32,000 nt of DNA, taken from Candidatus Saccharimonadota bacterium. Its GTDB lineage: Bacteria > Patescibacteriota > Gracilibacteria > BD1-5 > UBA6164. Of the stretch, positions 1-32,000 are shown piece after piece; the first letter of the stretch is position 1, and each line of letters starts with the position of its first letter. The position numbers and the translations under genes are program-made. Where the stretch lies: assembly GCA_963677765.1 (NCBI GenBank), contig OY782392.1, positions 960,001-992,000 of the forward strand, in the 5' to 3' direction. The notes beneath the pieces are model-generated. The model did not search any database. It was not told the origin of the DNA and was given only the letters and a program-made list of their open reading frames with translations.

Positions 1-1314
1 TTCTTCATTTAATGATTGTTCTTTTCTTTCTAGTATCTCTATTGTTTGGTTAAGGCTTGTTATTTGGTTGTGAAGAGTACTATTTCTTTGATTTAATTCA
101 TTATTTGATTGAGTTAACTCATCAATTTGATTTTTCAGAGTTATTATTTGAGCATTATTTATTTTTTTTATATTTTCTATTTCGTTTTTTAATACTTGAA
201 TTTCTGAATTATAATCATTTCTTTCTTTTTCAAATGCTTCTTGAAGTCTAACTATTCTTAGATTTGATTCATCCTCTATTCTTTTTACTTCAGCACTATG
301 AGTTGCTCTTAATCTTTCTAATTGTGAGTTATGCTCTTGATTTAGTTTTTGAATTTCTTCTTCTTTTTTTTCTATACTTTGTTCTAGGATTTGTATCTCA
401 CTTCTATGCTTTGTCTCCAGTTCTTGTATTCTTGAATTGAAGTTATTTTTTGATTCTTCTATTTTGTTTTCTTTATCTTGAATTATATCTTTTATTTGTT
501 GATTGTGATTGTTTATTAATACAACTTTTTCTTCTTCTATTTTTTGTAAATTGTATTCTAATATACCTATTTTTTGTCTTGCTTCTCTAAGTAGTTTTTG
601 TATTTTTAAGTATTGGTCGTTTATTTCAATTATCTTGTTCATTGATTGATCAATACTATCTGGTATATCTGATACAAAAACATTTAATAATTGTTTATTA
701 TCTATTTCTATTTGTGTTTCATTTTTACTAGATCAAAATAATGTCCATCATTTCTCTTCTATAACTATTTCTTTTCATTTTAATTCTCATTCAATTGTTA
801 TATTATTTGAAAATTCAGAATTTTCAGGCATAGATTCTCAAATACTTACAGTTATTTTTCATTCACTTAAATCATCTATTTTTTCTAGTAATTTATCTAG
901 TTCTTGATATCAACTTACCGTATATCATACTTTTAGTATTTTTATATATGATTCTAATAATATAGATCTAAGATATATTTTTGTATTTGGTCATATATTT
1001 AAGCTATTGTATTCATCATATAGTGAGTCCAATTGATTTTTATTTAATTCTACTTCATGCATAGAATAAAAATTTGATAATAAATCAATTAGTTCTTTAG
1101 AATTATTTATTTGAACTCCTGCTATCTCATTACTTACAATATTTCAATTGTTATTTTCAGTATTTGCTTTTGTATTAGTTCAAACTATTGCAGCAACTGA
1201 CAAACCTATTGCAAATATATATGTATTTATCTTGTTTTTAAACCATTTATTTTCAACTGAATTTTTAGGAGATTCTATATTAGTTTCAGAACTATTATGT
1301 TTTAATATTGACAT
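1..1314 (-). CDS. Membrane-anchored coiled-coil protein (C-terminus lies outside window)
   Basis: ATG at 1314-1312. Checked triplet by triplet: no TAA/TAG in this minus frame down to position 1. N-terminus MSILKHNSSETNIESPKNSVENKWFKNKINTYIFAIGLSVAAIVGTNT has one hydrophobic segment. The rest is E/K/Q/I/L-rich heptad-like sequence (e.g. IQELETKHRSEIQILEQSIEKKEEEIQKLNQEHNSQLERLRATH). No family recognised. Confidence 0.7.
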
Positions 1315-1352
1315 AAATTAATTGTATTTATTAATATAAAAATATTACAGTA

Positions 1353-1380
1353 TTTATACTACTTTTTTATATAATGTCAA
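1353..1380 (-). promoter_or_regulatory. Candidate sigma70-type promoter for the coiled-coil gene
   Basis: On the minus strand TTGACA (1380-1375), a 16-nt spacer, then TATAAA (1358-1353), about 40 nt upstream of the ATG. AT-rich background makes chance matches likely. Confidence 0.35.
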
Positions 1381-1383
1381 TAA

Positions 1384-1411
1384 AAAAATACTAATTTTTA
1401 TTAGTATTTTT
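1384..1411 (-). terminator. Hairpin terminator after the HD-domain gene
   Basis: Perfect 12-bp arms aaaaatactaat / attagtattttt with a tttt loop, abutting the stop codon at 1411-1413. Confidence 0.5.
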
Positions 1412-1884
1412 TATTTTCACATATCATCATATTTTAAGAATAGAGCAAGTTCTTTTTTGAAGCTATCATCCAAATTATCCCATACATATTTTTGTCTTGT
1501 GTATTCATTTTTCCAGTGTTGTCTATATTTTTCAGATTTTGTTTCATCTTTACTTTTTTCTAGTGCTTTTTTTGTTCATCTTATAAGATAGTGCCATCTT
1601 ACAAGTTTTTTTGTATAGTTTGAAATTAATGGCCAGTTTTTTATTATTTGATAGGATTTTTCTTCATGTCAGTGAAAAGAAAAATCTAGTTTTTTATTTT
1701 TATTTCTGGTTGCCATTAATGGTTTTCATATATCATGAAGCAATCATGCACTTATCATTCTATATTTTTTATTTTTTATAATATAGTATGTTACTTTTAG
1801 TGTATGAATTAATACTCAATGTCTATGCCGTTTATTTTGCTTCCAAAATATGGTAATTAATTTTTCCCAAATAGTAGTTTTCAT
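1411..1884 (-). CDS. HD-domain phosphohydrolase (157 aa)
   Basis: ATG 1884-1882, TAA 1413-1411, length 474 nt with TGA read as Gly. Motifs HRHGVLIHTL, LLHDIGKP (the G is TGA, 1720-1740) and FHGHEEKS fit the HD superfamily metal-binding pattern. Confidence 0.8.
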
Positions 1885-2016
1885 ATAAAAGAATATATTT
1901 ATCATTATAGGAATATATTTTAACTCAAAAATCTTATTTTTCAACTTATAGTTTTTTATTTGAAAAAAATAAATATTGTATAGAATTAAATTTATTATTT
2001 ATTAAGTATTTTAATA

Positions 2017-2208
2017 ATGTCTGAAAAACAAAAAAACTTTAAAGATTCTTATGAAAGATTATTAGAAATATCTGACTTATTGGATAGGGAAGAAATTATA
2101 GATGTTGATGAGTTAATTAATCTACAAGAAGAAGCAAAAAAATTATATAGTTTTTGTAATGAAAAACTTATGAAACTTGATAAAAAATTAGATAATAATG
2201 AAAAATAA
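2017..2208 (+). CDS. xseB: Exodeoxyribonuclease VII small subunit
   Basis: 63-aa acidic helical protein (NFKDSYERLLEISDLLDREEIIDVDELINLQEEAKKLYSFCNEKL) of XseB size and pattern. It lies 2 nt upstream of xseA. Confidence 0.8.
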   Translation: MSEKQKNFKDSYERLLEISDLLDREEIIDVDELINLQEEAKKLYSFCNEKLMKLDKKLDNNEK

Positions 2209-2210
2209 TA

Positions 2211-3440
2211 ATGTTAAATAACAAAAAGTTAAAATTATCTGAATTTCTTGATATTATAAAATGACAATTTGATGATATAATAGGCTATTATGAATACATA
2301 GTTGAAGCTGAAGTAAAGTCAATAAAACAAAATAGGCAATTTTATTATTTTGAATTAGTAGAGATAAAAAATTGAAAAATTATAGATTCTACTAGGGCTA
2401 ATATATTTAACCCTAGAGTTATGTTATCTTTTTTATGAGAAACATGAATTTCAGATATATCAGATTTAGTTTGAAAAAAAATATTATTTACTATTAAGCC
2501 AAGCTTTCATAGAACTTATAATTTTTCAGTCAATATATTAAAAATTCATAGTGATTATTTTATTGGTTGATTAGAGTTACAAAAAAAAGAAAATATAAAT
2601 AAATTATTAGATTTAGGTATTTTTGATAATAATTCAAAAACATCAATATGAACCCCTAGTTTTAAAATTGCAGTAATAACTTGAGATAAAAGTGAATGAT
2701 TTAGGGATTTTCAAACTATTTTGAATGAGTCTTGATATAATTTTGATATAGATATTTATACTTCTCTTGTTCATTGAGAAAAAGCAAGTAATGAAGTTTT
2801 ATGAAGACTAAAGGAAATATCATTAAAGGATGAATATAATTTAGTTGCTATTATTAGATGATGAGGTTGAAGTGAATGAATGAATTGGGCTAATGATTTT
2901 GATTTGTGTCATTATGTTTGTAATTTTGATACTCCAGTTATGTCTGCTGTTGGTCATACAGTTGATAAGAGTATACTAGATATGGTTTCATCTTATGATT
3001 GTAAAACTCCTAGTGAAGCTGCAAAAATACTTATTGATATTTATGATAATTATAAAAGGGAATTAGATATTAATTATGAATATATTAATAATTCTCTACT
3101 AAATTTTTCAAATCAATATAAAAGAGATCTTTCTTTTATATCAAAGAATTTACCTCTTCTAATATGAAATAAGGTAAAAAAATATGAACATGATTTAAAA
3201 CTTTTAAATATTGATAAAAAAATTGTTTATCAATTTAATATTTTAAAAAATAATCTTGTAAATACTTATAAAACAATACTTTATAATTCTCCTGATAAAG
3301 TAATATGAAAATGATATTCTTTAGTTCTTGATGAGAATTGAAGAATTCCAGATACATATAATATATGAAATGAATATATTATGAAAAGCTCTATTTATAA
3401 CTATAAAATAGAAATTAAATCAAAAGAAAAAAGAGACTAA
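2211..3440 (+). CDS. xseA: Exodeoxyribonuclease VII large subunit (409 aa)
   Basis: ATG 2211, TAA 3438-3440, in frame with track ORF 2880..3167. Contains the XseA core AIIRGGGGSEGMNWANDF...PVMSAVGHTVDKSILDMVSSYDCKTPSEAA. Three of the four glycines in RGGGG are TGA (2856-2873). By my count 21 TGA versus 5 GGN Gly codons. Confidence 0.9.
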
Positions 3441-3454
3441 TTAGTCTCTTTTTT
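3427..3454. terminator. Palindromic bidirectional terminator between convergent xseA and the AAA+ ATPase gene
   Basis: aaaaaagagactaa / ttagtctctttttt is a perfect 14+14 palindrome. It covers both stop codons (TAA 3438-3440 on plus, TAG 3439-3437 on minus). Confidence 0.5.
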
Positions 3455-5227
3455 TATAAATTTTTCAAATTCACTCATAAGTAATGATTTTTCTTCTATT
3501 TCTTCTTTTTCAAAGTTTTTTATTATATGAGCTACAAAGTCTTTAGCTAAATTAGAAAGTTCTCTTCAACTTTTTCATTCTAGTTTAGTTGTTATTTCTT
3601 CAGTTATTTGTCATAATCAACTAATATAATGATTTAATATTAGACTTATTTCATTTTTGTTTGGTCTTCTGAAATTTAAGTTTAAGTTAGAACGACTTAC
3701 TAAAGCTGGATCTAATTTATTTAATCTATTTGTAGAAGCTACTAGTAAAATATCATCTATTTTTTCAACTCAATCAAGTTTTTTTAGTAAAACTCATGTT
3801 ACTCTAGCTGTTGCTTCATGTGAATTATCTCTATTTGCTCATATTTCATCTATTTCATCTATCATTACAACAGCTCATCAATATTCTTCTCAAATTTTTC
3901 ATGATAATTCAAATATTTCATTTAATCTTGCTTCACTTTCTCAGTACCATTTTGAAGTTATAGAATTTATAGGTATATATATAAAAGGATATCATAAATA
4001 TCTACCTATTATTTTTCATTTTGTAGTTTTTCATGTTCATGGTTCTCATTCAAAAATGACATAATTAGGAATTATTGATTTTATATTTGGAAAAATTTCT
4101 TTAGAAATAGTTTGGTATTTATCTTTTTGTTTCCAAGGAGATATTATTTTTGTATCTACTTCTTCTTTTATATCTTCATATCATACAAATCATTCTTGTT
4201 CACAAATTTGATCTATACTTAGTTCTTCATTAGAATATATATTTACTTTTACTCATAGGTTTTCAAGTTTTTTTATACTATTTTCTCATGACTCTTGTAA
4301 TTTTAAGATTCTATATATTAATGGTTTTATAAACTTTGATACAATTTCTTCATTTATACTAGTAGTATGTGATGAGACTTTAATAAATAAATCATTATTT
4401 TTATTCTCTATTTCTACATTATAATATCATCAATCTCTATTATTTTGAGTTACATTTAAATTTATTGAATTTCAAAGAGAATAGTTATTTCATATTTGTA
4501 TAAAAAACTTATCTGTAAAGCTATTTTGTGTTACCATTATTTCACTTATAACTTTGTTATCTAGAGGAATTTTTCAATTAGTTCATAATGCTATTGTAAA
4601 AGAATTTCTTTCACTAAAAATTAAATTTTTTCTTTCTAATCATAATATATCAACTATATTATCTCAACTAAGAGTTTCATTTTTTGATAAAGAATTTTTT
4701 ATTAAATGATTTTGTAATATATTTTTTAGTAATTTTAAGTCACTATCTTTTATTTTTGATGCTTTAATTGTTATATTAATTTCTTGATAGTTATCTATAT
4801 TTAATTCTATATTTCATATTATTATAGATTTTCATTTTAGTTTAATTGAATCTTCTCATAGTATATCAAGGATTATAGATTCTAAACTTTTTTTATTTAA
4901 TAATAATCATGTATTTACTTGAACTGAACCATAACTATCTATTACAGATACCTCATTTCATGTTTCTTTTCTAAAAAAATCTTTTAAGAAATATCTTAAT
5001 TTATCTTTTTCACTAGCTACAAGAATTTGATCAATATTATTTTTTATATCTTCAGTTAATAATTGTGTAGTTGTTTCAGTACTTTCTATTGTATCATTTT
5101 TATTAGTTTCAGTTTTTTGTTCTTCTAAATTATTTTTTTCTTCTGTAATATCTTTTTTTTCTACTTGTTCTGCATCAATATCTTTATTATTTCAAAACCA
5201 ATTTCTTGGATTTAATTTGTCTAGCAT
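3437..5227 (-). CDS. AAA+ ATPase (classic clade) with a ~350-aa unrecognised N-terminal region (596 aa)
   Basis: ATG 5227-5225, TAG 3439-3437, 1791 nt. C-terminal module FEGEPGTGKTTKGKIIGRYLGYPFIYIPINSITSKWYGESEARLNEIFE (Walker A at 4025-4048, all three Gly are TGA), Walker B VVMIDEIDE, and second region of homology LLVASTNRLNKLDPALVSRS. Confidence 0.85.
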
Positions 5228-5233
5228 ATTTTT

Positions 5234-5932: not shown

Positions 5933-6427
5933 TTAGTTTTGAGCATATAGTATTTTATTTAAGTCATAAGAATTTAATTTACAACTTTTTATTACACTCA
6001 AAACTTTTCTAGAGTATTTAGGATCTTCAGCATAATAACCTGCATATGAATTTATTATTTTTGGCAGGTTATAACTTTCTGATTCCAGAGTTTCTCTTAG
6101 TTTTCTATATGCATTATGATTACTTAGATTGACGAAATATGCTTCTACATTTTCTTCAACTGAATCATAAGTCATTATTTTATTTTGAGAACTCATCCCA
6201 AAATGATTATTTTGTTTTCTTGCTGCACGACTTTTACCATAGCCAGTTTCTAATATCGCTTGCGCAATTATAATAGAGTTCGGCATATTATCTGCTACCA
6301 CTCCATCTATATTTTGTCTTGTATCTTCTATTATAGAGTTCATGTAGTCAATATATTCATCATTACATGAATATGCTGCACTTGAAAACATCATAATTAG
6401 AATAGCTATTATAGTTGTTTTTTTCAT
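5933..6427 (-). CDS. Secreted glucosaminidase-family (FlgJ C-terminal / Bax-like) peptidoglycan hydrolase, 164 aa
   Basis: Open under the standard code (track ORF). Signal peptide MKKTTIIAILIMMFSSAAYSC (possible lipoprotein Cys). Core IIIAQAILETGYGKSRAARKQNNHFGM matches the AQAxLESGWGxS...NNxFG glucosaminidase pattern. AGGAG SD at 6442-6438, 10 nt before the ATG. No TGA codons; all 5 Gly are GGN. Confidence 0.8.
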   Translation of the reverse strand: MKKTTIIAILIMMFSSAAYSCNDEYIDYMNSIIEDTRQNIDGVVADNMPNSIIIAQAILETGYGKSRAARKQNNHFGMSSQNKIMTYDSVEENVEAYFVNLSNHNAYRKLRETLESESYNLPKIINSYAGYYAEDPKYSRKVLSVIKSCKLNSYDLNKILYAQN

Positions 6428-6516
6428 AGCTAGGTTTCTCCTTTGTTTTGTTTTAACACATAGGTTAAAAGATTTCAGCGACGCGATTTTATAAAAAAAA
6501 AATTTAATTGCAAATA

Positions 6517-6547
6517 AAAAAGATATTTTTATTAAAAATATCTTTTT
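6517..6547 (-). terminator. Hairpin terminator after the dcd pair
   Basis: Perfect 14-bp arms aaaaagatattttt / aaaaatatcttttt with a 3-nt loop, 4 nt after the stop at 6551-6553. Confidence 0.55.
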
Positions 6548-6550
6548 ATA

Positions 6551-7066
6551 TTAAAAATCCATATGTGATTTTGAGGAAATTATACCATTTCATTCACTAT
6601 ATTTTCATTTGTAAATATCTATTTCTCATTTTGTTTCCCAGAAACTTACTTGTCATATTTTCATACCTGGATAAATTTTTACAGGAAGAGTGGCAAATAA
6701 TTGTAAAGTTGAGTTTCCATAGTATCATGTATCAATCAAATCAGCAGTTATATGTATAAATAATCATAATCTTGCTACTCATGATTTATTATGAATTAGG
6801 GGAGTATATTTCGTACTTCAAAATTTTTCTTTAGTAGAGGCTAATACAAATTCTCATCTTTCTAATAATAATCATTCTTCTGGTATGTTAATTATTTCAT
6901 ATTCATTATCCTTTTTACTGTCTAAAGTATTATTTTTATATTTTAAAACTTGATTTCATAACCTAACATCGTAAGAGTTTGTATTTATATTAGATTCATC
7001 AAAGTTTTCTATTTTTATATTTCAAGAATTAACTTCTTTTATTATTTCTTTTCAGGTTAATATCAT
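6551..7066 (-). CDS. dCTP deaminase/dUTPase-family paralogue B (171 aa) with Gln at the presumed catalytic Glu position
   Basis: ATG 7066-7064, TAA 6553-6551, 516 nt. MILTGKEIIKEV...NTNSYDVRLG...NKSGVARLGLFIHITADLIDTGYYGNSTLQLFATLPVKIYPGMKIGQVSFWE follows the Dcd pattern. The TLE motif reads TLQ (CAA at 6703-6701). Confidence 0.8.
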
Positions 7067-7072
7067 ATTTTT

Positions 7073-7573
7073 TTATTTAATAAGTAATGACTCTTGTGGT
7101 TTTGAGAAATTTTTATAATTTCATTGATATAATTCAGCATCTCATTTTTTATCCCAAAATGAAACTTTTCATGCTATCATTCATGGATATACAATTACAT
7201 CTTTTGTAGGGTATATTTCTAATGTCCAACTATGAGATGTTCATATATGTCACATATTTGCTGATAATTGCATAAATAGTCATAATCTTCACATGTCAGA
7301 ATTTCATATAAGAGAACTCATAAATTTTGTACTACCTATATTTTCTATTGTAACTCAGAGATACATATAACCCTTTTTTAGAGTATATCATGTTTCTGGT
7401 ATTTCAACATCTTTGAATATTGGTTTTTCTCAATCAAATCAATCATATACTTTTAGATGACTAGCTAATCTATAGTTATAACTATTGGTATTCAATTGTT
7501 TTATATCAAATGGTTCTATTGTTAGATTACCATTTTTTATTTCTTTAATAATTTGTTTTCAACTTAAAATCAT
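7073..7573 (-). CDS. dcd: dCTP deaminase-family paralogue A (166 aa)
   Basis: ATG 7573-7571, TAA 7075-7073, 501 nt. MILSGKQIIKEIKNGNLTIEPF...NTNSYNYRLA...GNSDMGRLGLFMQLSANMGHIGTSHSWTLEIYPTKDVIVYPGMIAGKVSFWD. The conserved Glu is retained (GAA at 7219-7217). Confidence 0.85.
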
Positions 7574-7595: not shown

Positions 7596-7655
7596 ATTGT
7601 TAATATAACAATTTTATTGTTAATATAACAATTTTATTGTTATTAGTCAATATTT
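7596..7655. promoter_or_regulatory. Tandem 20-bp units, each with a TTGTTA-N3-TAACAA inverted repeat (candidate operator) upstream of dcd
   Basis: attgttaatataacaatttt occurs perfectly twice (7596-7615, 7616-7635), followed by a degenerate third copy (attgttattagtcaatattt). Located 23-80 nt upstream of the dcd A start codon. Confidence 0.4.
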
Positions 7656-7698: not shown

Positions 7699-8052
7699 TT
7701 ATTTTAAAAATGCTTTAGAGCTTCATTCTATATCTTCTAAATCATTAGCTAATGAACCAAGTAAATCTTCAGTTCATAATGTAATTTCATTATTTCTAGC
7801 ATAATTTTCTATTTCTTGTCTAAGCTCTTTTATAATATCATGAGCTCTTTGTTTTTTTTCTTCTAAGCTAGAACTTTCTAATTCACCACCTAAATCAGCA
7901 TGTTTTTCACCTATTTTATGAGCAACTTCAAACAATGTTTCATAGAAACCTTCATTTTCTTTATGAAAATCTGCGTCTTTAGTTTTTGTATCAATATGGA
8001 TTGTGAACATTTCAAGATATGCTTTTAAAGCTTTTTTATGTAATTCTTTCAT
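7699..8052 (-). CDS. Short ferritin-like / Dps-like four-helix-bundle protein (117 aa)
   Basis: Track ORF 7774..8052 continues through TGA to TAA at 7701-7699 (354 nt). HIDTKTKDADFHKENEGFYETLFEVAHKIGEKHADLGGE and the C-terminal GTEDLLGSLANDLEDIEGSSKAFLK resemble Dps helices (fHW..G..F..lHe.fe..y......D.iAERi..LGG ; D..t.dll...l.e.ek..W.l.a.L). Shorter than typical Dps, so the family call is tentative. Confidence 0.5.
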
Positions 8053-9885: not shown

Positions 9886-10026
9886 TACATTTTTTATTTA
9901 AAATCTATTTTGTTTTTTTATTATACTTAAAATAAAAACCTTATAAAAATATTTATTTAAAAATATTTGACTTTTTAAGAAAATATTTTATTATCTAATC
10001 TCATAAAAGGAGGAAAGGACTGTGAT

Positions 10027-10206
10027 ATGTTGATACTTACTAGAAAAATTGGCGAAACATTTTTCGTAGGAGATGATGTCACTGTAACAGTTTTGTCTGT
10101 AAAAGGTGACCAAGTTCGTATAGGTGTTAATGCACCTAAAGGTGTTACTATCAACAAAGAAGAAACTTATGTTGAAAGGATTAAACGTGCAGATAAAAAA
10201 AGTTAA
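10027..10206 (+). CDS. csrA: Carbon storage regulator CsrA/RsmA (59 aa)
   Basis: [59 protein letters not shown]. About 34 of the first 48 residues match E. coli CsrA as I recall it. The GGA-rich leader aaaAGGAGGAaAGGAc (10004-10019) contains an SD. No TGA; all 5 Gly are GGN. About 33% G+C by hand count. Confidence 0.9.
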
Positions 10207-11719: not shown

Positions 11720-11739
11720 AAGAAGACTTGTCTTCTTTT
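11718..11739. terminator. Bidirectional hairpin between convergent genes
   Basis: aaaagaaga-cttg-tcttctttt overlaps both stop codons (11717-11719 plus, 11740-11738 minus). Confidence 0.5.
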
Positions 11740-13234
11740 ATTTTTTTAATGCATAATCAAATAATTGAATTATAGCTTCTCTTGGTGATTCAGCATCTCT
11801 AACTATAGTTTTTCTATTTATTTTTATACTAACTAATCAGTTGTTTTTTATTACACTAAATATTTTATTCTCATTTCATCTTACTAATCTAGTTTCTTGA
11901 ATACTATTTAACATATTTGAGTATTTTCATTCTTTTAGAACTCTATCTCTAAGAGCTTTTATTATTTCTTTTTCTTCACTTAAAAGATATGTTCATATTA
12001 TCCACATCCAATCTCATCTTTTAGTTGAATTATTTATTGTATCAATAATTTCCTCTCTTATTTTTTCAGGTAGTTTTAATCATTTTTTTACACCTGTTTT
12101 TATATGATCTTTTATTTGATTTATACTTTCTTCTACTTCTTCGCAGTTTTCTTTTACTTTTGAATATCTTTTCATAACTTTTTCTTCAAAATGATATCAT
12201 TTTTCTAAAAAATATATCCTGTTTAATTGTTGATTTAGATATCTGTTAACTATTTTTCTTAAATCTTCATTTGTATATGGTTGTTCATCAGATCTTAAAA
12301 AAGCTTTTAATTGTCTATGTAGTATAAAATCTAGATATCTTCTCATAGGAGAAGTAAAATGAGTATAATTATCTTCTTTTAATCAAAAATGATATTCCAT
12401 TTTATTTGAATAATAAGCTCTTTCTAATTGTTTTGGTGTATAATCTTTTCATTTTAATCATACCATATGATTTCTATAAACTCATGTTTCTGGGTAGTTT
12501 ATCATTTGAAATTTTGCTGTTTCAACATTTGCGGCAACCATGAACTCTTCTATAAGTCTAGATGCTATATTTTTTCAGTTTAGATTATCTTTTTATATTC
12601 ATCTTTCTGCTTCATCAAATTCTATTATTCATTTTGATAATCTTTTTTCTCTTAGTTTTTTTGCTATTTCATCTTGAAGTCTAAGTTGCTCATGGAAAGG
12701 ACTTTCTTCATAAAAATATTGATCTCTAAATTCTTCATAATCAAATCTTTTTCTATTTATAAATTTTGATTCATAGAAACTTGAATTAATAACATTCATT
12801 TGATTATCATAATCTATTTGTACTGTTTGTGATAATCTACTTGTTTGATCATTTAGAGAAATTATATCTGTTGCAAGTTCTCTAGGTAGCATATAGATAG
12901 TTTTTTCCTCACCTAAATAAATACTAGTTCATTTGTTCATAGCATCTATATCTATAGGGGATAGTATTGGTATAAATTCTGTAGGGTCAGCTATTGATAT
13001 AAAAATAGTATATCATCAGTCTTTTCTTTTTTCTGCCCAAATTCAATCATCTAGGTCTTTACTTTCTCTTGCATCTATTGTTATTCATTCAATTAGTTTT
13101 CTAGAAGGAGCTTGATCATTTATTCCGTTTTTTAATATATCTCTAACTTGATTTTTAGTCTCATTTGTATATCAAAATGGTAGACCAGAATTAATTCTAG
13201 GTATCAGATTATCTGGAAAGTTTTCTAATCTCAT
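11738..13234 (-). pseudogene. RNase II/R-family (RNB domain) exoribonuclease interrupted by a single in-frame TAA at codon 214
   Basis: ATG 13234-13232, terminal TAA 11740-11738, 1497 nt in one frame. RNB motifs lie on both sides of the internal TAA (12595-12593). Upstream: ITIDARESKDLDDGIWAE, ISIADPTEF, TSIYLGEEKTIYMLPRELATDIISLND. Downstream: [47 protein letters not shown]. Local context is ..[25 protein letters not shown].. Lacks the CSD/S1 domains of full-length RNase R. Confidence 0.75.
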
Positions 13235-16592: not shown

Positions 16593-16644
16593 TTTTTTTA
16601 ATTCTTTATTATATTAATCCACAAAATTAGAAAAAGGAGTTTAT

Positions 16645-17509: not shown

Positions 17510-17533
17510 ATAAAGGATAATTATATCCTTTAT
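17510..17533 (-). terminator. Hairpin terminator after xth
   Basis: ataaaggata-atta-tatcctttat overlaps the stop at 17530-17532. Confidence 0.5.
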
Positions 17534-19220: not shown

Positions 19221-20510
19221 ATGAAGTACATACAGAGTATATTATTAATACTTTTATCCTACTTTGGTTTATTTGTTTTTTCAAATGTAGAGCTAGCAAA
19301 TAGCTCTTTTTCTGCGTATGAAAATCAAATATTTGAATGATCTAATGATGTTAAAGTCAGAAAATTACAAGAAGTTTTTAAATGATTGGATTTATATGAA
19401 TGAAATGTTGATTGAAATTTTAATTCTATAAAATATATCCTACTTGATTATCAAGTTAAGGCTTGAATAATATCAAATTATGAAGATTATGGTGCTTGAT
19501 ATTTTTGAAACAAAACTATCGAAGCTTTAGAAAGGGATTATTGAGAAAAGTTTTTATCTTTAAAAGAAACTTATCTAAAAATTGATGAACCATCTTTAGA
19601 TGAAAGATATTTTTATGTTACAGCTTATTATTCTCCTCTTCCAGGTCAATCAAGGTATACTACAGGTAGTTATTCTTGAGATGTTAGACTTAATTGAGAA
19701 TGAAAAATAACAGCTTCATGAAAATGAGTTTTTTCTTGATTAATGGCGGCTCCTAGAAATTATGCTTATGGTACAAAAATATATTTAGAATGAATTTGAG
19801 TATGAAGTGTAGAGGATAGATGATGAGCTATTGTTAATGCTTGAGAGAGATGACATGATTATGATAGAATTGATATATGGATGTGATATTGAGATGAATG
19901 ATTAGAAAGAGCTTTGAAATGGTGAACTAGAAAAGTAAAATGATATGTTGTAGATGATAATGCTGAAATAAGTATTGAATTCGATGAATCTCCAGTTGAA
20001 AAATATAAATGATTACAAGCTTGACCTAATGATGAAGAAGTTAATAATATAGTAGAATTACAAAAATTACTTAGAGATATATGATTGTATAATTGATCTA
20101 TAGATTGAGATTATAATAAAATAAAAAATATATTGATAAAATATCAATTAGAAGCAGGAATTATATCCAATGAATTAGATTCTGCTGCATGATATTTTTG
20201 ACCTAAAACATTTGCTGCTATGAGAGAAGATTATGGTTCTTGAAATTGATTTTTTAAGGAAAAATATTATGAATGATCTGTTGATGATTTTGATGATAAT
20301 AGTTTTGAAATAGCTCAATCTAAGGCCTTGAAACTTCAAAAATTAAAGGAACAATTAGATAAAGTATTAGAGAAAAAATACTCATGAGATGCTCTTAGTA
20401 TAAATAGATTTAAAAATAAATTAAAATATAGTTTGGAACAAATTATTGATTCTTGAATTAGTAATGAAAAAAAATTAGAATTAATGTATTTTAAAAATAT
20501 ATTATATTAA
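19221..20510 (+). CDS. Secreted 3D-domain (MltA/Rpf-like) protein with two PG_binding_1-type repeats (429 aa)
   Basis: ATG 19221, TAA 20508-20510. Signal peptide. PG-binding repeats VRKLQEVFKGLDLYEGNVDGNFNSI...AGYFGNKTIEAL and VELQKLLRDIGLYNGSIDGDYNKI...AGYFGPKTFAAM. 3D domain VTAYYSPLPGQ...NGEGKITASGK...AAPRNYAYGTKIYLEGIGVGSVEDRGGAIV...RIDIWMGYGDEGLERALKWGTRKVKGYVV. Confidence 0.8.
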
Positions 20511-20515
20511 TATAT

Positions 20516-20545
20516 AAAAAAGTAGATTGTAAAGTCTACTTTTTT
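20516..20545 (+). terminator. Intrinsic terminator
   Basis: aaaaaagtaga-ttgtaaag-tctactttttt directly after the stop codon. Confidence 0.55.
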
Positions 20546-20603
20546 TGATGCCTATTTTTTATATGATAAAATAATATAAGTAATATTTAAAAAATAAAAT
20601 TAG

Positions 20604-22295
20604 ATGAAAAAATTATTAAGTATAAATACTATTATATTATTTTTTATAAGTTTATTTCCTACAAATCATGTTTGAGCTGTTAGTGATACATGATATTTTG
20701 TTGTAACTGCTTATTATTCACCATTACCTAATCAAGATAAATATTTAACAGGTAATTATGAATCAGAAAAAAGACTTAACTGACAATGAATTGCTTGAGC
20801 AAGCTGAAAGTCTGTTTTTTCATGAATGTTAGCTGCTCCAAAATCTTATAGTTTTGGTACAAAAATTTATTTAGAATGATTATGAATTTGAAGCGTAGAA
20901 GATAGAGGATGAGCTATTGTTCCAGCATGACAAAGAGGTTATAAACATGATAGAATTGATGTTTGGATGTGATATTGAGATGAGTGATTACAAAGAGCTT
21001 TATATTGGTGAAAGAGAACTGTAAAAGGTTATGTTGTTAATTCTAATTCAGAAGTTACTATAAATTATAATAATGTATCTTCTCCTAAGTGGGCTACTTC
21101 ATGATTATCTTCACAAAATGATGTTTTTAATTACTCTTTATGAATATGATCTGATATATCAAGAGTTAAAAAATTACAACAATTTTTTAAAGACTTATCA
21201 TTATATAATTGAGATATAGATTGAGTTTATAATAAGGAACTTACGAATATTGTTTATAGCTTTCAAGTTTCAAATGATATATTATCTAGTCAATATGACT
21301 TATGAGCATGATATTGGTGAGTAAAAACAAGAGGTTTATTCAAGAAAATGTATCTTAATTGAGAGTTTGATGATTTAGAATCAAATAAAGATTTATTATT
21401 TTCATTAAATAATTATTCTGAAAATAAAAAAGAAGAAATAAAAGAAGATAAAGAAGAAATTGAGATAAAAAATATAGAAGAAACTATAATAATAGAACAA
21501 GAAATAAAAGATAATATTGAATTATTAGAAGAAAATGATACTTCAAATAATTTTGAGTATAAGGCTAATGAATATATTGAATCAATAAAAACTGATATGA
21601 ATTTATTTGATTCATTTACAGATAATATATCTCAGGTAAAACAATTACAAAACATAATGTTTGATATGTGATATTATGAATGAGATATTAGTTGAAATTA
21701 TGATGATTTAATAAGTCCAATTTATAATTATCAAATTGATAATTGAATTGTTATTAATGAATCTAGTCCAGGTGCTTGATATTTTTGACCTAAAACTAGA
21801 GCTTCTATAAAAAATAAATATTTATCTTATTTAGAAGATTTAAAAAATACTAAGTTAGAAGAACTAAAATTAGCATATGAAAAAGAGCAAAGAGAATTAG
21901 AAGAGCAAAAAAGAAGGGAAGAGTTAGAACAAAAATATAAAGAATTAGAAAAATATGCTTTGGATATTGCTTCTAAAAAAATAGAGTTAATTTGAAATTT
22001 AAGACAATGAGAAGTTTCAAACTCAGTTAGAGAATTACAATTAGTATTAAAAGATTTATGATATTTTGATTATCAAGATACTGCAATTTTTTGACAAATT
22101 ACAAGAGAAGCTGTTATTGATTATCAATTGGATAAAAATATTATATCTTCAAAAGATGATATAGCTTCTTGAATTGTTTGACCTAAAACTTTAGACTCTA
22201 TAAAAAATGATATAAAATTATTGGTTTTACAAGAAAAAATCGAAACTGAACATACTTACTTAAAAGAGGTTGCAAGTATAGATTTATCACTATAA
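20604..22295 (+). CDS. Secreted 3D-domain protein paralogue with three PG-binding repeats and an E/K-rich coiled linker (563 aa)
   Basis: ATG 20604, TAA 22293-22295. The N-terminal 3D domain is highly similar by eye at DNA level to the 19221 gene (VTAYYSPLPNQ...GTKIYLEGLGIGSVEDRGGAIV...RIDVWMGYGDEGLQRALYWGKRTVKGYVV). Three repeats of type VKKLQQFFKDLSLYNGDIDGVYN / VKQLQNIMFDMGYYEGDISGNYD / VRELQLVLKDLGYFDY. Confidence 0.8.
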
Positions 22296-24575: not shown

Positions 24576-25616
24576 TTATTTTTGTAATATATAAAACATA
24601 ACTCAAAAAATAGAAAAAATTATTCATATTAACCATAATCTGAATACTACATTTTCTTCAGACCAACCTATAGCTTCAAGGTGGTGATGAAATGGTGCGA
24701 TTTTAAAAACTTTTTTACCATTTCTAAGTTTTTTGCTAGTTAATTGAATTATAACTGATATAGTTTCAAATATAAATATTGCTCATACAATAAATAATAT
24801 GAATATTGTATTTGTTAGCATCGCCATAATTCATAAGTTAGCTCATAATGCAAGGCTTCATACATCTCACATATAGAATTTTGCTGGTTTAACATTAAAC
24901 CATAAAAATGCTACTAAAGCTCATATAATTGTTATACATAAAGTTGATAATAAAAACATTCATTGATCATATGTAATATAAGCATAAACACTATAAGCAA
25001 ACAATAACAATCATCATGCTAATCAGTCTAATCAATCTGTTATATTTACACTATTTGCAGATGCTATTATAACAAATATAAACAAAGGTATAAAAAATAA
25101 TCCTAGTGATATTCATTCTCAAATTCATAAATTTAATGCTACATTTCACCAATCTAGTTTAAAGTAAAACCATAATGATCATAATAAAGCAAATAGAAGT
25201 AACCATATCATTTTGAACTTTGCTGATATTCATTTTGTTCTTCATATTCATTTTATATTCATATAATCATCAATCATTCATAAGAATCATACTGATGCTA
25301 ATGTAAATAATGATAAATATGTTTCTTTTTGATTTAGTAGACTATTATTAATTAATCCTATTTTTTGAAATATAATACTTATAAGTACCATAAAAAAAGT
25401 TATTACTAGTATCATTACTCATCACATAGTAGGTGTTCAAACCTTTTTTTTATGTAATTTTAAGAATTCTACAGCTTTTCACATAGTGGCTTCTTCTCTA
25501 ATTTGTTTTCAAAGCTTAAAATTTATTAAAAAATTTATGAAATATGGCATTGTTATCATTCATATAACATATGTTATGATTCAGAATGAAAACATTAAAA
25601 CTAAATATGAACTCAT
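24576..25616 (-). CDS. mraY: Phospho-N-acetylmuramoyl-pentapeptide transferase (346 aa)
   Basis: ATG 25616-25614, TAA 24578-24576, 1041 nt. GTPTMGG, GMIDDY, ANSVNITDGLDGLAGG, FYMGDVGSLALG, APFHHHLEAIGWSE. Most conserved Gly are TGA, while the conserved Trp is TGG. Confidence 0.9.
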
Positions 25617-26428: not shown

Positions 26429-26456
26429 AAGACTAGATAATTTTATCTAGTCTTTT
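26427..26456. terminator. Palindromic bidirectional terminator
   Basis: aaaagactagataa-tt-ttatctagtctttt overlaps both convergent stop codons (26426-26428 and 26458-26456). Confidence 0.55.
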
Positions 26457-27130
26457 TAGTATTTTTCAGTATATATTGATTCTTTATTAAATCATTTATT
26501 TATAAGTAATTTTTCTGCTGAGTCTATCATAGCAGGTATTCAACATATATAGAATTCTTCATAATTTTTTATAGTTTCTTTGTTTAGAAAATCTGTTACA
26601 TATCATTTATTATACTTATTTGATTCAGATGAAGTATATATATAAAAATCAAAATTATTATGTTTTTCTTTTAATTTTTTTAGTTGTTCTATATAAAATA
26701 GATCTTTTTCTTCTCTTGTTCAAAAAATAAGTGTAAAGTTGCATTCTAGATTATTCTCTAATCATCATATTATTTGATTATATAGTGGGACAAATCATGT
26801 TCATGTTCATAAAAATAATTTATTTTTATTTGAGTTGTTAAGAATAAAATGCCCTGCAGGTCAAACTCATCTTACTTTGTCTCAAGTATTTAGTTCACAT
26901 AAAAATTTACTACCTCATCTTCATCATTCGTTTAGTTCCCGTTTTTTTATAATAAGAGTTATTTCTTTTCAATTATTTTCTAATATGGAATAAGCTCTTC
27001 AACCAATATTTAATAAAAATGTTATAAATTGTCATGATTTAAAGCTAAACTCTTTTTCTCACTTAAATATTAATTCATATACATTATGAGTTAAGTTTGA
27101 TTTTTTTATTAATTCAAATTCTTGTATCAC
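26456..27130 (-). CDS. Ferredoxin-reductase-type FAD/NAD(P)-binding oxidoreductase (224 aa)
   Basis: GTG 27130-27128 (no in-frame ATG before the upstream TAA), TAA 26458-26456, 675 nt. SGQFITFLL..GGRAYSI (RxYS FAD motif), GGRGGSKFLCEL, VRGVGPAGHF, LFLGTGTGFVPL, ICGIPAM. Confidence 0.75.
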
Positions 27131-27192
27131 TTTTAATATTATTAATCATTATTAATTTATTTATAATTATTTTAGTATTAAAATCAAAAAAT

Positions 27193-27360: not shown

Positions 27361-30234
27361 ATGCAAAAAATTTATAAAATATTGGCAATATTAATGATAT
27401 TTTTTGTAGGTATTTTTCCTATAACGAATACATTTACTGCTGATTATACATGATACAATGTCTCTCCCGACATGGAAAATGTTCCATATCAAAATAAACT
27501 TGATTTATTTTTAAATAAAGTTTTAGAGTCTAGAAAAGATTTTACTAGTGAAAGAAATTATTTGGTTTTTGTTTCTAAAATAGAAACTAAATTAAATAAT
27601 CTTAATTCTAGTTATTCATGAAATGAAGAAATTAAACAAATGCTTGTTTATTTAGAAGAATGAATTAAAAATATTAGAAATATATCTAATCAAAATTGAG
27701 AATTAGATGACTTTTTTTGTGAATTATTCTGAGATTGTGATAATGTTAGTTGATCAACTATTGATAATTCATCTAGTACGGTTTCTACAGATACAAACAC
27801 AAATACAAGTAATAACAATAATTCTAATACAAATAATAATATAAATAGTTGTAAATGATATTGGGATAAACAATGAGGTGATATATTTTTAAGTGTAAAA
27901 AGTGACACTCCTGTTTTGGTTAAAAATAATATAAAAATAGATACTAGTAAACAATGTTTAGATTTATGTTTACAATCTTGATGAAGTAGTAATGAAAGAA
28001 AAGTTTGTGAGTTTAATTGACAAATAATTAAAAATGTAAGCACTAACACAAATACAAATACTAATACTAATACTAATACTAATACTAATACTAATACTAA
28101 TACTAATACTAATACTAATACTAATACTAATACTAATACTAATACTAATACTAATACTAATACTAATACTAATACTAATACTAATACTAATACTAATACT
28201 AATACTAATACTAATACTAATACTAATACTAATACTAATACTAATACTAATACTAATACTACAGAATATAATTATTTAAAATATTTATGAGTTAAATCAT
28301 ATAGTTGATGAGATTTTGATACTTTCAAGGTTAATATAAATTGATTTGAAGGTTGTAGTATATATAACTGTAGTTGATCAAGTGTTCCTACAAGAAATGA
28401 AAACTGAACTATAATAAGTTCATGTAATTGAACTACATCTACTAGTTGAGCAGAAAATAAATCTTTTGATAAGGAATTTATAGATACACAAAGAAGTAAT
28501 GATAATTATATTTCTATTCAATGTTACAGAGAATCATATATGAAGGATTGAAAAAAATATTATCAAACTAGCTCATGAGAATATATTTTAAATCCAACTA
28601 AAATTAGTGATATAAAAAGATCTCAAATTAACTTTAGTTGATTATCACAACCAACAAACACTTCAAATACTAATACAAATACAAACACAGATACAAATAC
28701 AAACACAGATACAAATACTAACACAGATACAAATACTAACACAAATACTAACACAAATACTAACACTAACACAAACTCTAATACTAATACTAATTCAACT
28801 GAAAGAGTTTTATCTTCATGATTTTGAAAAGTTGTTGAATATTATACTTGTTGAACTACTGAAACATGACCAAGTAAGAGAACTTATTTCTTTGATAAAG
28901 AAAAATGGGATTCTAGAAGTTCAGGTTCTATAGATGGTTCTAAATGACCTTGGATGAGTTGTGATTCTTGTTCATCTAGTTCTTCAGCTAATACACTTTG
29001 TTGAAATGATAAAATAACTGAATCAAGTAATGATTCATATACTAATATTTCTACTTCTCAAACATCAGTTAATATATCAAAAGAAACAGTTCCTAATTGA
29101 TGAGGTATAGTTACTTTGTATTGATATATTAAATCATGAGATAGTTGTAGATTATCATACTCTACTAAATGATCATGATGATCTAATTGATTAGTTGCAT
29201 GAAGAACTTTTTCTGCTACATACTTTGTTACTTCTAGTAGTTCTATAAGTGTAAATTGTAGTTCAAATAACTATAATTTTAAATTTATAGAAGAATGAGT
29301 TACAGGCGTTATGTGTGAATGATGAGAAAGTATTTGATGACATCAAATGACTGCATGAGAAAAATGATCTGTTGTAGAAAAAGTATTAGTTACATCAGAT
29401 TCTAAATGATATTATAGACAAACAACAAGCTTTAGATGTAATAATAACTTAACTTGGGAAATGGTTTCTTGAACTCAAGTTAAAAAATATACTAGTTGTA
29501 AAAGCTGATATACTTTATCTTGAACAAGCTGTATAATTTCAAGTTCTACTAGTACTCAATCTTCTTGATGAACAACTAATACTTCTAACACTGAAGAAAA
29601 ATTATGTTATATATATAAGTCTAATAATAATTGAACAACTTCAAGTATGGAAAGATGGTTGAGAACTAAATCTTACTGTGAAAATGAATGTAATAAAGCT
29701 GATACATCTTATACTTGTAAATGGGGTGATTCTGTAATCAGAAATTGAGTTAGTAGTTCTAAAACATTTTCACAAGCAGAAGTAAATACTTATGTTTACA
29801 ATGTATGATTGAGTAGTTATTATACTATTGCTACTGCTGTAAAAACTTTTGAATCACAATGATATACTTGAGTAAGATCACAAGTTGCTACCGCTATTTG
29901 ATTAAGTGAATCAGATGTAACTTGATATATTAATTGAATAAATTCAGGTACTATAAAAAAAGCAAATAATGATTTAAATTGTAGTATTGCAAAAGATCAA
30001 ATTTGAAGACTTTATTATAATGCATGAAGATGTCCTGATACATGATGATATAATTATTGGAAATGAGAACTATCAAAGTCTTCAATAACAGAAGTTACTA
30101 CACATTTTAACTGAGCTCTAGCTAGAGATTGCTTAGAGAAAACTTGAACAACTGATAAAACTATTTGTTTTAATAAAATGTTTTGTCCAACTTGATATAC
30201 TTATATTCCAAGAACTGACTCTTGTAGTAAATAA
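27361..30234 (+). CDS. Large secreted Cys-rich protein with three Thr/Asn(Asp) low-complexity linkers (957 aa)
   Basis: ATG 27361, TAA 30232-30234. The frame was checked codon by codon from 28261 to the end. Signal peptide MQKIYKILAILMIFFVGIFPITNTFTA. Dozens of Cys with recurring C-x2-GY-x6-C-like elements (SCKSGYTLSGTSC, FCPTGYTYIPRTDSC). Many N-x-S/T sites. No family recognised. Confidence 0.75.
28057..28260 (+). repeat. Perfect hexanucleotide microsatellite (AATACT)x34, in frame = (Asn-Thr)34
   Basis: 204 nt with no deviation from the 6-nt unit. Starts in phase with the ORF (28057-27361 = 696). Preceded by imperfect ACT AAC ACA AAT ACA units. Confidence 0.95.
28654..28800 (+). repeat. Imperfect Thr-Asn/Asp dipeptide repeat (degenerate ACN AAY/GAT units)
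   Basis: aca aac act tca aat act aat aca aat aca aac aca gat aca ... aat act aat tca act. 49 codons, same dipeptide theme as 28057-28260 but with many synonymous and N/D substitutions. Confidence 0.8.
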
Positions 30235-30259
30235 AAAAACACCTTTTATAGGTGTTTTT
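30235..30259 (+). terminator. Intrinsic terminator of the 957-aa gene
   Basis: aaaaacacct-tttat-aggtgttttt immediately after the stop. Confidence 0.65.
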
Positions 30260-30268
30260 TTGTAAAAT

Positions 30269-30297
30269 AAAAAGCCACTTATTATAAGTGGCTTTTT
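30269..30297 (-). terminator. Intrinsic terminator of the 63-aa gene
   Basis: Perfect 13-bp arms aaaaagccactta / taagtggcttttt with a 3-nt loop, 19 nt after the stop at 30316-30318. Confidence 0.65.
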
Positions 30298-30315
30298 AAG
30301 ATCAACGGATAAAAC

Positions 30316-30507
30316 TTATACTTTTATCCCTTGATCTCTTAGCTCTTGCTCATAGATTCTTTTTCTCTCTTCAGGATTTGGGATGTCTTGTTTGAAACTT
30401 CTACCTGTAGCTTCTTGGTATTTTTTGTTGTGACGATCCTTCCAGTGAGAGAATTTATTCCAGTTGCTTTGCAGACCTAGGTCCTCTTTTGTTTGCGAGT
30501 CGAGCAT
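30316..30507 (-). CDS. Hydrophilic 63-aa protein of unknown family in a self-contained expression cassette
   Basis: Track ORF MLDSQTKEDLGLQSNWNKFSHWKDRHNKKYQEATGRSFKQDIPNPEERKRIYEQELRDQGIKV. AGGAG at 30519-30515, 7 nt before the ATG. About 39% G+C (75 of 192 by hand count). No TGA; uses codons rare elsewhere in the window (CTC, GAC, TCG, CTG). Confidence 0.7.
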   Translation of the reverse strand: MLDSQTKEDLGLQSNWNKFSHWKDRHNKKYQEATGRSFKQDIPNPEERKRIYEQELRDQGIKV

Positions 30508-30555
30508 GATATTTCTCCTTTTTGATTGATGTTTACCCTCATGTGGGTATTATCT

Positions 30556-30585
30556 ATTATATATGAATTATCCTTGATTTGTCAA
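30556..30585 (-). promoter_or_regulatory. Near-consensus sigma70 promoter for the 63-aa gene
   Basis: Minus strand TTGACA (30585-30580), an 18-nt spacer, then TATAAT (30561-30556). Alternatively a 16-nt spacer to TATATA. Predicted 5' UTR of about 40 nt containing a short stem tacccacatgagggta. Confidence 0.55.
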
Positions 30586-30661
30586 TTTTTTATTAAAAAT
30601 TACTTCTTTACTTTTGAGTATTAATTTTTATTATTATTGTAATATTTAATAATCTAAGTAG

Positions 30662-31957
30662 ATGAAAAAAATTTATTTAATAGATTGAAATAGTTTTATA
30701 TATCGTATGTTTTTTGCTCTTCCAGAGTTTTCAACTACTGATTGAAAAATTGTTAATGCTTTATTTTGAATGGCTAAATTTTTTGTTTCAACATTGGTTA
30801 AAGAGAATCCAGATTATGTTGTTTTTGTTAAAGATGCAAAATGAGAAAATTTTCGTCATAAATTATATAGTGATTACAAAGCTACTAGAGATAGAATGCC
30901 AGATAACTTGAGATCTCAAATCATCGATATAGAGGAAATGATATCAAAAATGAATATTGATATTATTGAAATACCTTGATATGAAGCTGATGATGTTATA
31001 GGTACTCTTGCAACTGATCTTTGAAAAGATAAGGATAATGAAGTATATATATTATCAGGTGATAAAGATTTATATAGTTTAACAACTGATAATGTATTCA
31101 TTTATGATACAATGAAGAAGAAAACTTATAACTGAGAAAAAACTAGAGAAAAGTTTTGAATAGAATCAAAATTAATAATAGATTATTTAGCTATTGTTTG
31201 AGATAAGGCTGATAATATTCCAGGTATAGATTGATTTTGACCTAAAAAAGCTGTAGATTTAATCAATAATATTTGAACTGTAGAAAATATTTTAAAAGAG
31301 ATAGATTTAGTTGATTCATGAACTAAAACATTTAAAGATTATGATAAATCTATACAATCATGCTTTAAATGAAAAACATTTGAAAAATTAAATAATTCTA
31401 GGGAAGATGCTATATTAAGTAAAAAATTAGCAACTATTGAATTATGAGTTGAATTAGATAATTTTGAATTAGATAAATTTATTTTTAAATGAGATTCTAT
31501 ACTAAATACTGATGTAATTGAGTTTTTTAAAAAATATGAATTTAATTCTTTGTTATGAGATGACCATACAGAAAAATTACTTAACTTTGATGATTTAGGT
31601 CTAAAGGTTAATATAATTGATAACGATGATGAATTGAATAAATTATCAAGTTTAATACAAAAATATAATAGTATAACTCTAGATACTGAAACAACATCTT
31701 TGAATTATATAGAAGCTGAATTAGTATGAGTTTCTATATATCTAGATGATAATAATATTTATTATATAAATCGTTTACATGATTGAAAATCAGTTAGTGA
31801 TAATTCTTTATCTGATTTTTTAAAAAAACTATTAGAGTCTGATATATTGATTGTATGACATAATTTAAAATATGACTTACAAATATTGAATTTATATTTA
31901 GATTGAAACTATAAAAAATATAGTAATATTTCTTGACAAACTAGCTTAGATTTATAA
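30662..31957 (+). CDS. polA: DNA polymerase I N-terminal portion: 5'-nuclease domain plus the first half of the 3'-5' exonuclease domain (431 aa), ending at a TAA before any polymerase domain
   Basis: ATG 30662, TAA 31955-31957. IYLIDGNSFIYRMFFALP, VFVKDAKGENFRHKLYSDYKATRDRMPDNLRSQ, GYEADDVIGTLA, LSGDKDL, VGDKADNIPGIDGFGPKKA, then ExoI LDTETTSL and ExoII VGHNLKYDLQIL. No ExoIII or polymerase motifs before the stop. Only 43 nt of the window follow. Confidence 0.85.
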
Positions 31958-32000
31958 AATAAATATGATTTATTTAATATTAATTTATAGTAAAATATGA

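Follow-up and report, generated by a model that had tools for sequence, protein, structure and literature searches.

The reading of UGA as glycine is documented for two bacterial lineages, the SR1/Absconditabacteria and the BD1-5/Gracilibacteria, and the statement in the original prediction for the DNA described here that it is documented only for these is consistent with the literature (PMC6851277; PMC8629427; bioRxiv 10.64898/2026.05.24.727570). In the GTDB, the clade that uses this code, NCBI translation table 25, is the class JAEDAM01 with the orders Absconditabacterales and BD1-5, and the database holds hundreds of table-25 genomes (bioRxiv 10.64898/2026.05.24.727570). Here, we describe the genetic code of a stretch of 32,000 nucleotides (contig OY782392.1, positions 960,001 to 992,000; in the following, the window), in which UGA is the main glycine codon and the rare codon CGG probably encodes tryptophan.

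In BD1-5, the assignment of UGA to glycine has been validated by proteomics; in none of the BD1-5 genomes was prfB, the gene for release factor 2 (RF2), detected, although prfA was (PMC6851277). A survey with Codetta assigned UGA to glycine in 13 of 15 Gracilibacteria and in all 6 of 6 Absconditabacteria species, and the two exceptional Gracilibacteria belong to a different order, possess RF2 and are without tRNA-Gly(UCA), the tRNA expected in lineages with UGA as glycine (PMC8629427). The same survey predicted both CGA and CGG as tryptophan codons in Absconditabacteria, and CGG as a tryptophan codon in some Gracilibacteria, with others keeping it for arginine (PMC8629427).

The window shares with the table-25 Gracilibacteria/BD1-5, such as the closed genome reported by Sieber et al. 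(2019; PMC6851277) and HOT-871 (CP017714.1), the use of UGA for glycine and of UAA and UAG as stops, a low GC content, a gene-dense organization, and common protein families and gene order, with homologs that are 50-96% identical. It differs from the closed BD1-5 genome in its GC content (22% compared with 28.9%) and from this group in that CGG in the window's clade is apparently not an arginine codon. With the code of the Absconditabacteria (Shulgina and Eddy, 2021; PMC8629427) it has in common the assignment of UGA to glycine, a tryptophan-like CGG, very rare CGN codons and AGA as the dominant arginine codon. Unlike in that code, however, the real genes of the window are free of CGA, CGA shows an arginine- or lysine-like profile in the clade, and the homologs are from Gracilibacteria. 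Finally, the window resembles code 4 in that a small AT-rich genome has turned the UGA stop into a sense codon, presumably along with a loss of RF2, but the amino acid gained by UGA is glycine here and tryptophan there. Among the users of code 4 are Hodgkinia, Zinderia, Nasuia and, with a similarly low GC content, the Mycoplasmatales and a number of AT-rich endosymbionts of insects.

The explanation that we favor, and in which we have high confidence as a whole, is that the window is a chromosomal fragment from an uncultured, very AT-rich member of the Gracilibacteria/BD1-5 within the Patescibacteria (candidate phyla radiation, CPR). In this organism, UGA would be an ordinary and indeed the main glycine codon, and translation would end at UAA and UAG only. 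By analogy with characterized relatives, UGA would be read by a dedicated tRNA-Gly whose anticodon is UCA, and RF2 would have been lost; AT mutation pressure would then favor TGA over GGN, and the rare CGG would probably be read as tryptophan in the clade. The assignment of UGA to glycine is already documented, and the window adds a species-level member at the AT-rich extreme that leaves the understanding of this code unchanged. What goes beyond the routine are the clade-level signal for CGG as tryptophan and a conserved, gene-specific avoidance of TGA.

Open reading frames and the amino acid encoded by TGA

The window has a GC content of 22.3%. Under the standard bacterial code (code 11), it contains 11 open reading frames (ORFs) of at least 100 amino acids (aa), which cover 13.8% of its length and reach no more than 244 aa, in line with the earlier observation that this code leaves short ORFs only. 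When TGA is treated as a sense codon, ORFs of this size cover 91.5% of the window and the longest spans 986 aa. Treating TAG as sense instead yields a coverage of 20%, and treating TAA as sense one of 60%, with a longest ORF of just 330 aa. In shuffled versions of the window (n = 50), coverage under the TGA-sense rule averaged 2.3% and the longest ORF spanned 185 aa.

A greedy call of non-overlapping genes, with TAA and TAG as the sole stops, yields 35 genes and a coding fraction of 92.0%. This reproduces the 35 contiguous genes and the roughly 92% of the original prediction, although two of the 35 are probably spurious, as discussed below. The prediction had further pointed out that all gene lengths are divisible by three, which is true, but true by construction and hence no evidence. 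All 34 complete genes of the call end in TAA (33) or TAG (1). Within the genes, there are 525 in-frame TGA codons, which correspond to 5.35% of the 9,817 in-frame codons, compared with 0.91% for GGN and 0.59% for TGG; when read as glycine, TGA accounts for 85% of all glycine codons in the window. The only in-frame TAA or TAG is a TAA at 12593-12595, which replaces an ancestral TGA and breaks a gene of the RNB family; UAA and UAG are still stop codons.

A GC content of 22% and a sense TGA would fit code 4 equally well, and we therefore treated the identity of the encoded amino acid as the key question. With TGA as tryptophan, the products of the window would contain 5.9% tryptophan and 0.9% glycine, whereas with TGA as glycine, they would contain 6.3% glycine and 0.6% tryptophan. 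We scored one and the same gene set against Pfam twice, with TGA translated as glycine and as tryptophan. Glycine outscored tryptophan in 27 of the 27 families that have a TGA codon within the match, for instance, with 95.8 versus 64.7 bits for AAA, 99.7 versus 53.0 for Glycos_transf_4 and 72.1 versus 20.6 for PG_binding_1, and five families (HD, Peptidase_M14, 3D, MraY_sig1 and FAD_binding_6) were lost altogether under tryptophan. The TGA-free matches to Exonuc_VII_S and Glucosaminidase, which served as internal controls, scored identically under both translations.

Close homologs in sequence databases were rejected as a guide to what TGA encodes, since their translations depend on the annotation pipeline and show both tryptophan and glycine, which would render the argument circular. 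Instead, we masked TGA as X and aligned the products to standard-code proteins in the PDB (MraY, UvrC, Taq PolI, exonuclease III, TatD and an FNR-family reductase). Across 95 distinct TGA sites, the PDB partner had glycine in 55 cases and tryptophan in none, against a glycine background of 7.7% in these alignments (binomial P = 7e-38). In the same alignments, TGG faced tryptophan in 8 of 13 cases and GGN faced glycine in 13 of 18.

The codons of orthologs in three related contigs (L001, L003 and L004) were compared at the DNA level, where no translation table is required. In 545 orthologous codon pairs, TGA is retained, and in 229 it is replaced. In 122 of the latter, the partner is a glycine codon (GGT in 83 and GGA in 31), followed by codons for serine (36), asparagine (20), aspartate (10) and alanine (9), a series that, read as amino acids, is the typical substitution profile of glycine; TGG, TGT, TGC and TAA occur in 0 of the 229 differing pairs. 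Conversely, the most frequent partner of GGT is TGA (83), followed by GGA (10). Tandem paralogs within the window likewise swap TGA for GGT or GGA, but in no case for TGG: in two dCTP-deaminase-like paralogs (6551-7573, minus strand), TGA is opposite TGA at 7 positions, GGT at 4 and TGG at 0, and in two paralogs with 3D and peptidoglycan-binding domains (19221-22295, plus strand; 38 and 37 TGA codons), it is opposite TGA at 18 positions, GGT at 3 and GGA at one. Lastly, we considered columns that are conserved in 41 standard-code PolA sequences. Here, TGA codons of the window fall on glycine-majority columns in 7 of 9 cases, and those of 36 other Gracilibacteria in 268 of 337.

Pfam scores, PDB partners, ortholog codons, PolA columns and paralogs thus agree with one another and with the original prediction: TGA encodes glycine, which is established as firmly as sequence alone permits. 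The outcome that the prediction had named as speaking against it, TGA mainly on tryptophan columns, did not occur, with tryptophan at 0 of 95 PDB partner positions.

The motifs on which the prediction was built are also found where it had placed them, with TGA on their glycine positions and TGG at the tryptophans that it had quoted. In the AAA ATPase gene (3437-5227, minus strand; Pfam AAA), all three of the three glycines in the Walker A motif GEPGTGKT (4025-4048) are TGA. The gene for the large subunit of exonuclease VII, xseA (2211-3440, plus strand), reads R-TGA-TGA-GGT-TGA-S at 2856-2873, and a recount of its glycine codons gave the same 21 TGA and 5 GGN as before. The motif LHDIGK of an HD-domain gene (1720-1740) and the RsuA motif GRLDVDTTG have TGA on their glycine positions, as do all four of the four glycines in the DGLDGLAGG motif (25011-25037) of mraY (24576-25616, minus strand; 30 TGA codons) and the glycines of the GIY and YIG motifs in uvrC (14730-16592, minus strand; 28 TGA codons). 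In the exonuclease III gene xth (17530-18336, minus strand), 11 of the 17 TGA codons face glycine in PDB 3g91, and TGG faces tryptophan in 4 of 6 cases.

Relatives of the window and the CGG codon

Relatives were sought with the uvrC product as the query. In a BLASTP search with TGA masked, the best homologs of UvrC are 51-92% identical, and those with a name among the best 120 are all assigned to Candidatus Gracilibacteria, except for one Candidatus Altimarinota. Candidatus Altimarinota is the NCBI phylum name for the Gracilibacteria group. Contigs from ENA ERZ1673962 and JGI 3300031933 show approximately 89-98% protein identity to the window, and two metagenome-assembled genomes at NCBI (GCA_041694155.1 and GCA_041642635.1) share its gene order over approximately 20 kb. 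We also scanned the window's PolA-like protein against one genome per GTDB species. The best 37 loci are of the Gracilibacteria type, with 49-72% identity, and include the complete genome HOT-871, while the next matches are from Bdellovibrio and other standard-code bacteria, with an identity of at most 43%. The nearest GTDB representative has a protein identity of approximately 72-81%, which varies with gene and method.

The code signature of the window is shared by approximately 35 related loci. In all of the related loci from Gracilibacteria that measure 9 kb or more, code-11 ORFs cover 12-42% of the sequence, compared with 82-96% when TGA is sense; TGA makes up 2.6-6.3% of the codons and the GC content is 21-28%. 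Standard-code controls, including ones of low GC content (25-29%), have a code-11 coverage of at least 90%. TGA accounts for a fraction of 0.85 of the glycine codons in the window, at the top of the range in these relatives (0.47-0.86), but this value is matched by two of them (L037 and L040), and the window is therefore an extreme yet ordinary member of its lineage. The data point to an organism on the Gracilibacteria/BD1-5 side and not to one of the Absconditabacteria. The earlier description as a CPR genome of the Gracilibacteria/Absconditabacteria type was accordingly right about the lineage, as judged from homologs and synteny, with its Absconditabacteria half now disfavored.

Codons of the CGN type are rare in the window, with counts of 3 for CGG, 7 for CGT, 0 for CGC and, in real genes, 0 for CGA, alongside 239 AGA and 13 AGG. 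We therefore turned to the clade and compared orthologs all-against-all across 40 Gracilibacteria loci (189,453 codons). In these loci, CGG is paired with TGG 130 times, with CGG 114 times, with CTT 28 times, with ATA 21 times, with TTA 11 times and with AGA only once, while CGT is paired with AGA 1,262 times. The partners of CGA (AAA, 45; AGA, 33; CGT, 11) form a profile resembling that of arginine or lysine. Among the 13 independent column groups that contain CGG, 11 of them informative, tryptophan ranks first as the partner in 5 and arginine in 0. Two of these groups are HLEAIG-W-SEENVV and FRL-W-LI in MraY, both with tryptophan in E. coli-type MraY; the window has TGG at these positions, and CGG is found there in four and three relatives, respectively. 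For the invariant MraY tryptophan at 24657-24674 (minus strand), TGG in the window, the relatives with CGG are L013, L024, L033 and L034. Furthermore, L003 and L004 each have one CGG where the window has TGG. This signal, obtained at the DNA level, independently supports the Codetta prediction for some Gracilibacteria.

The window itself has three CGG codons, all on the minus strand. The one at 1828-1830 lies in the HD-domain gene, has no ortholog among the fetched loci and is probably read as tryptophan given the evidence from the clade. The second, at 17165-17167 in a bPH-like membrane protein (16793-17461), is kept as CGG in L001, L003 and L004. The third, at 26939-26941 in an FNR-like oxidoreductase (26456-27130), corresponds to leucine, tryptophan or isoleucine in relatives, never to arginine or lysine, and to a variable column (V, D, N) in the PDB alignment.

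With just these three codons at non-conserved positions, the reading of CGG in the window rests on parsimony with its relatives, and on this basis we consider it fairly likely that CGG encodes tryptophan in the window's organism. NCBI table 25 is then probably incomplete for this clade, which would combine UGA as glycine with CGG as tryptophan. The original assignment of the window to table 25 holds for TGA as glycine and for TAA and TAG as stops, but CGG, probably a tryptophan codon in the clade, would fall outside that table.

These assignments have consequences for annotation. Code 11 makes the window resemble non-coding junk, and a fallback to code 4, which is common among pipelines, puts tryptophan at approximately 5% of the residues in every protein; if CGG indeed encodes tryptophan, even a translation with table 25 gets a few residues per 10,000 codons wrong in the clade.

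Alternative readings of the code

The two readings that deny glycine at TGA are both very hard to reconcile with the data. Code 4 would account for the GC content of 22% and for the sense TGA, and it even appears to find support in public translations of UvrC relatives, which at the columns of the window's TGA codons show tryptophan 1,600 times and glycine 824 times. These tryptophans, however, stem from gene-calling pipelines that evidently translated with code 4, and are not evidence. Code 4 would imply the improbable composition of 5.9% tryptophan and 0.9% glycine, it lowers the Pfam scores in all 27 of the 27 informative families, and it finds no tryptophan among the 95 PDB partners; moreover, an exchange between TGA and TGG was never seen in orthologs, even though the two codons are a single substitution apart. 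We regard it as extremely improbable. Still more remote is the notion that the standard code applies and that the TGA codons are real stops, be it in a decayed, pseudogene-rich genome, in an error-ridden assembly or in a locally recoding phage. The RNB gene does have an in-frame stop, but the 525 in-frame TGA codons stand against this single in-frame TAA or TAG, TGA is kept at 545 orthologous pairs in three relatives and sits on catalytic glycine residues, and the housekeeping genes of the window (MraY, UvrC, TilS, GrpE and XseAB) are syntenic with complete Gracilibacteria chromosomes.

The remaining two alternatives accept glycine at TGA. A plain table 25, in which CGG still encodes arginine and its pairing with TGG arises from chance and a small number of shared sites, is a possibility to be reckoned with, albeit not the one we would choose. 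It is favored by the small basis of just 13 independent column groups, with tryptophan on top in 5, by the non-conserved positions of the window's own CGG codons and by the existence of Gracilibacteria that keep CGG for arginine (PMC8629427). Yet it leaves unexplained why CGG has 130 TGG partners and a single AGA partner while CGT, AGG and CGA show clear arginine or lysine profiles, why four and three relatives have CGG at invariant tryptophan sites in MraY, and why a TGG of the window is matched by CGG in each of the nearest relatives, L003 and L004. Much less probable is an organism from the Absconditabacteria (SR1) instead of the Gracilibacteria/BD1-5. Both lineages read UGA as glycine, and CGG as tryptophan is best documented in the Absconditabacteria (PMC8629427), but no close match carries this label, all named ones being Gracilibacteria, and CGA, which also encodes tryptophan in Absconditabacteria, is arginine-like in the window's clade (AAA, AGA and CGT).

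Several observations weigh against the reading of the window as a Gracilibacteria fragment with UGA as glycine and CGG as tryptophan. Approximately 40% of the TGA positions face residues other than glycine in distant homologs; this is expected at variable positions, and the GGN controls show a similar pattern. None of the three CGG codons of the window lies at a position conserved in standard-code homologs. As to the decoding machinery, ARAGORN found no tRNA genes in the window or in L001, L003, L004 and L005, and none of the 9 tRNAs that it found in 85 fetched loci has the anticodon UCA. The loss of RF2 in the window's organism is deduced by analogy, as 32 kb cannot show the absence of prfB. 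Finally, Rfam and Pfam scans found no rRNA or ribosomal protein genes in the window, which thus offers no phylogenetic marker of this kind.

Genes that avoid TGA and other features of the window

A few genes depart from the prevailing use of TGA. The gene csrA (10027-10206, plus strand; 59 aa), which is recognized by Pfam CsrA with E = 5.9e-20 and has orthologs at the equivalent place in L003 and L004, encodes its 5 glycines with GGN and 0 with TGA. A gene with a glucosaminidase domain (5933-6427, minus strand) has 0 TGA and 5 GGN codons (P = 6e-5 against the window average), and a gene of 118 codons with a weak match to DUF5856 (7699-8052, minus strand) has 2 TGA and 5 GGN codons, with identical counts in its L003 ortholog. 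This avoidance is kept in the orthologs at 16416-16595 and 19903-20256 of L003 and at 15963-16142 of L004, and its conservation in the csrA and DUF5856-like orthologs points to selection rather than to recent transfer. A recent horizontal transfer of csrA and of the gene at 7699-8052 is accordingly disfavored. For the glucosaminidase gene, for which no ortholog was found, recent transfer is possible. A look-up of the exact product of this TGA-free gene gave no match on record, and an exact pattern of 47 nt from the right end of the window had 0 hits in metagenome contigs.

Strongly GGN-biased genes also occur in related loci, namely, at 6195-7535 and 17018-18475 of L035, 12253-13944 of L028, 6189-7631 of L025 and 8542-9960 of L017; one example has 1 TGA and 35 GGN codons (P = 4e-17). 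Judged from their N-terminal sequences, they include putative glycyl-tRNA synthetase genes in three loci. Recent acquisition or high expression could account for this GGN bias.

Considered jointly, a code of this clade, the window's organism included, that is listed in no NCBI table (UGA as glycine, CGG as tryptophan and a near-extinct CGA still as arginine) together with conserved UGA-avoiding genes is a reading that we only narrowly favor. The avoiding genes would be small ones (csrA, the DUF5856-like gene and an ORF of 63 aa described below) and that of a secreted enzyme, the glucosaminidase, joined in relatives by the putative glycyl-tRNA synthetase genes. If this reading is true, the code would represent a transitional form between table 25 and that of the Absconditabacteria, with both CGA and CGG as tryptophan, and the conserved avoidance of UGA would suggest that decoding this codon still comes at a cost that is visible to selection.

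Some of the called genes required correction. The ORF at 9975-10157 (minus strand) is antisense to csrA and was rejected as a gene. The ORF at 30383-30649 (plus strand) is probably spurious as well: it has a CGA codon and overlaps a more plausible minus-strand ORF, a probable gene of 63 aa at 30316-30507, whose start, product and glycine codons (0 TGA, 3 GGN) were read by eye and for which no family match was found. The only two CGA codons in all called ORFs lie in these two ORFs, at 9975-10157 and 30383-30649, both of which were judged spurious on other grounds, and the absence of CGA may therefore serve as a filter for gene calling in the clade.

The RNB gene (RNase II/R family; 11738-13234, minus strand) was called as two ORFs, 12593-13234 and 11738-12541, which are split by the TAA at 12593-12595. 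It is 85-87% identical to a single ORF of 497 aa in L003, and the codon that matches the TAA is TGA (glycine) in both L003 and L004, so that a single G-to-A change made a glycine codon a true stop. The TAA may be a nonsense change or a polymorphism, or it may stem from an error in sequencing. A nonsense mutation of this kind, from TGA to TAA, is specific to codes with UGA as a sense codon.

The PolA-like gene at 30662-31957 (plus strand) is complete, with 432 codons including the TAA stop and 22 TGA codons, and its product consists of the 5'-3' exonuclease and 3'-5' exonuclease domains only. Its orthologs in 36 Gracilibacteria (L006-L041) measure 416-466 aa, compared with approximately 800-930 aa for full-length standard-code PolA from the same search. 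The window's organism must either encode the polymerase domain at another locus or lack it.

Upstream of this region lies a large gene of 958 codons (27361-30234, plus strand), whose Cys-rich and Ser/Thr/Asn-rich product has an N-terminal hydrophobic segment and no Pfam domain. The gene contains a near-perfect repeat of ACTAAT (x36.7, encoding Thr-Asn) at 28042-28261 and a second, degenerate repeat of the TN type at 28664-28798. Its product may be a variable surface protein akin to that of the repeat-rich, hypervariable gene described in the literature (PMC6851277). Between this gene and the convergent 63-aa ORF, there are two adjacent hairpins with flanking runs of A and T (30235-30297), which look like bidirectional intrinsic terminators. 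The Rfam scan of the window gave no match at gathering thresholds; at E up to 1, the sole match was STnc370 (E = 0.5), which falls on these hairpins and was put down to chance. A structured RNA in the GC-richer segment at 30235-30660 is likewise unsupported, as the two terminator hairpins and the small minus-strand ORF explain this segment better.

A further repeat, at 7596-7642, lies in the intergenic region that separates the gene at 7699-8052 from a dCTP-deaminase-like gene. This perfect, partly palindromic tandem repeat of 20 nt (ATTGTTAATATAACAATTTT x2.3, 100% match) may be an operator or a terminator.

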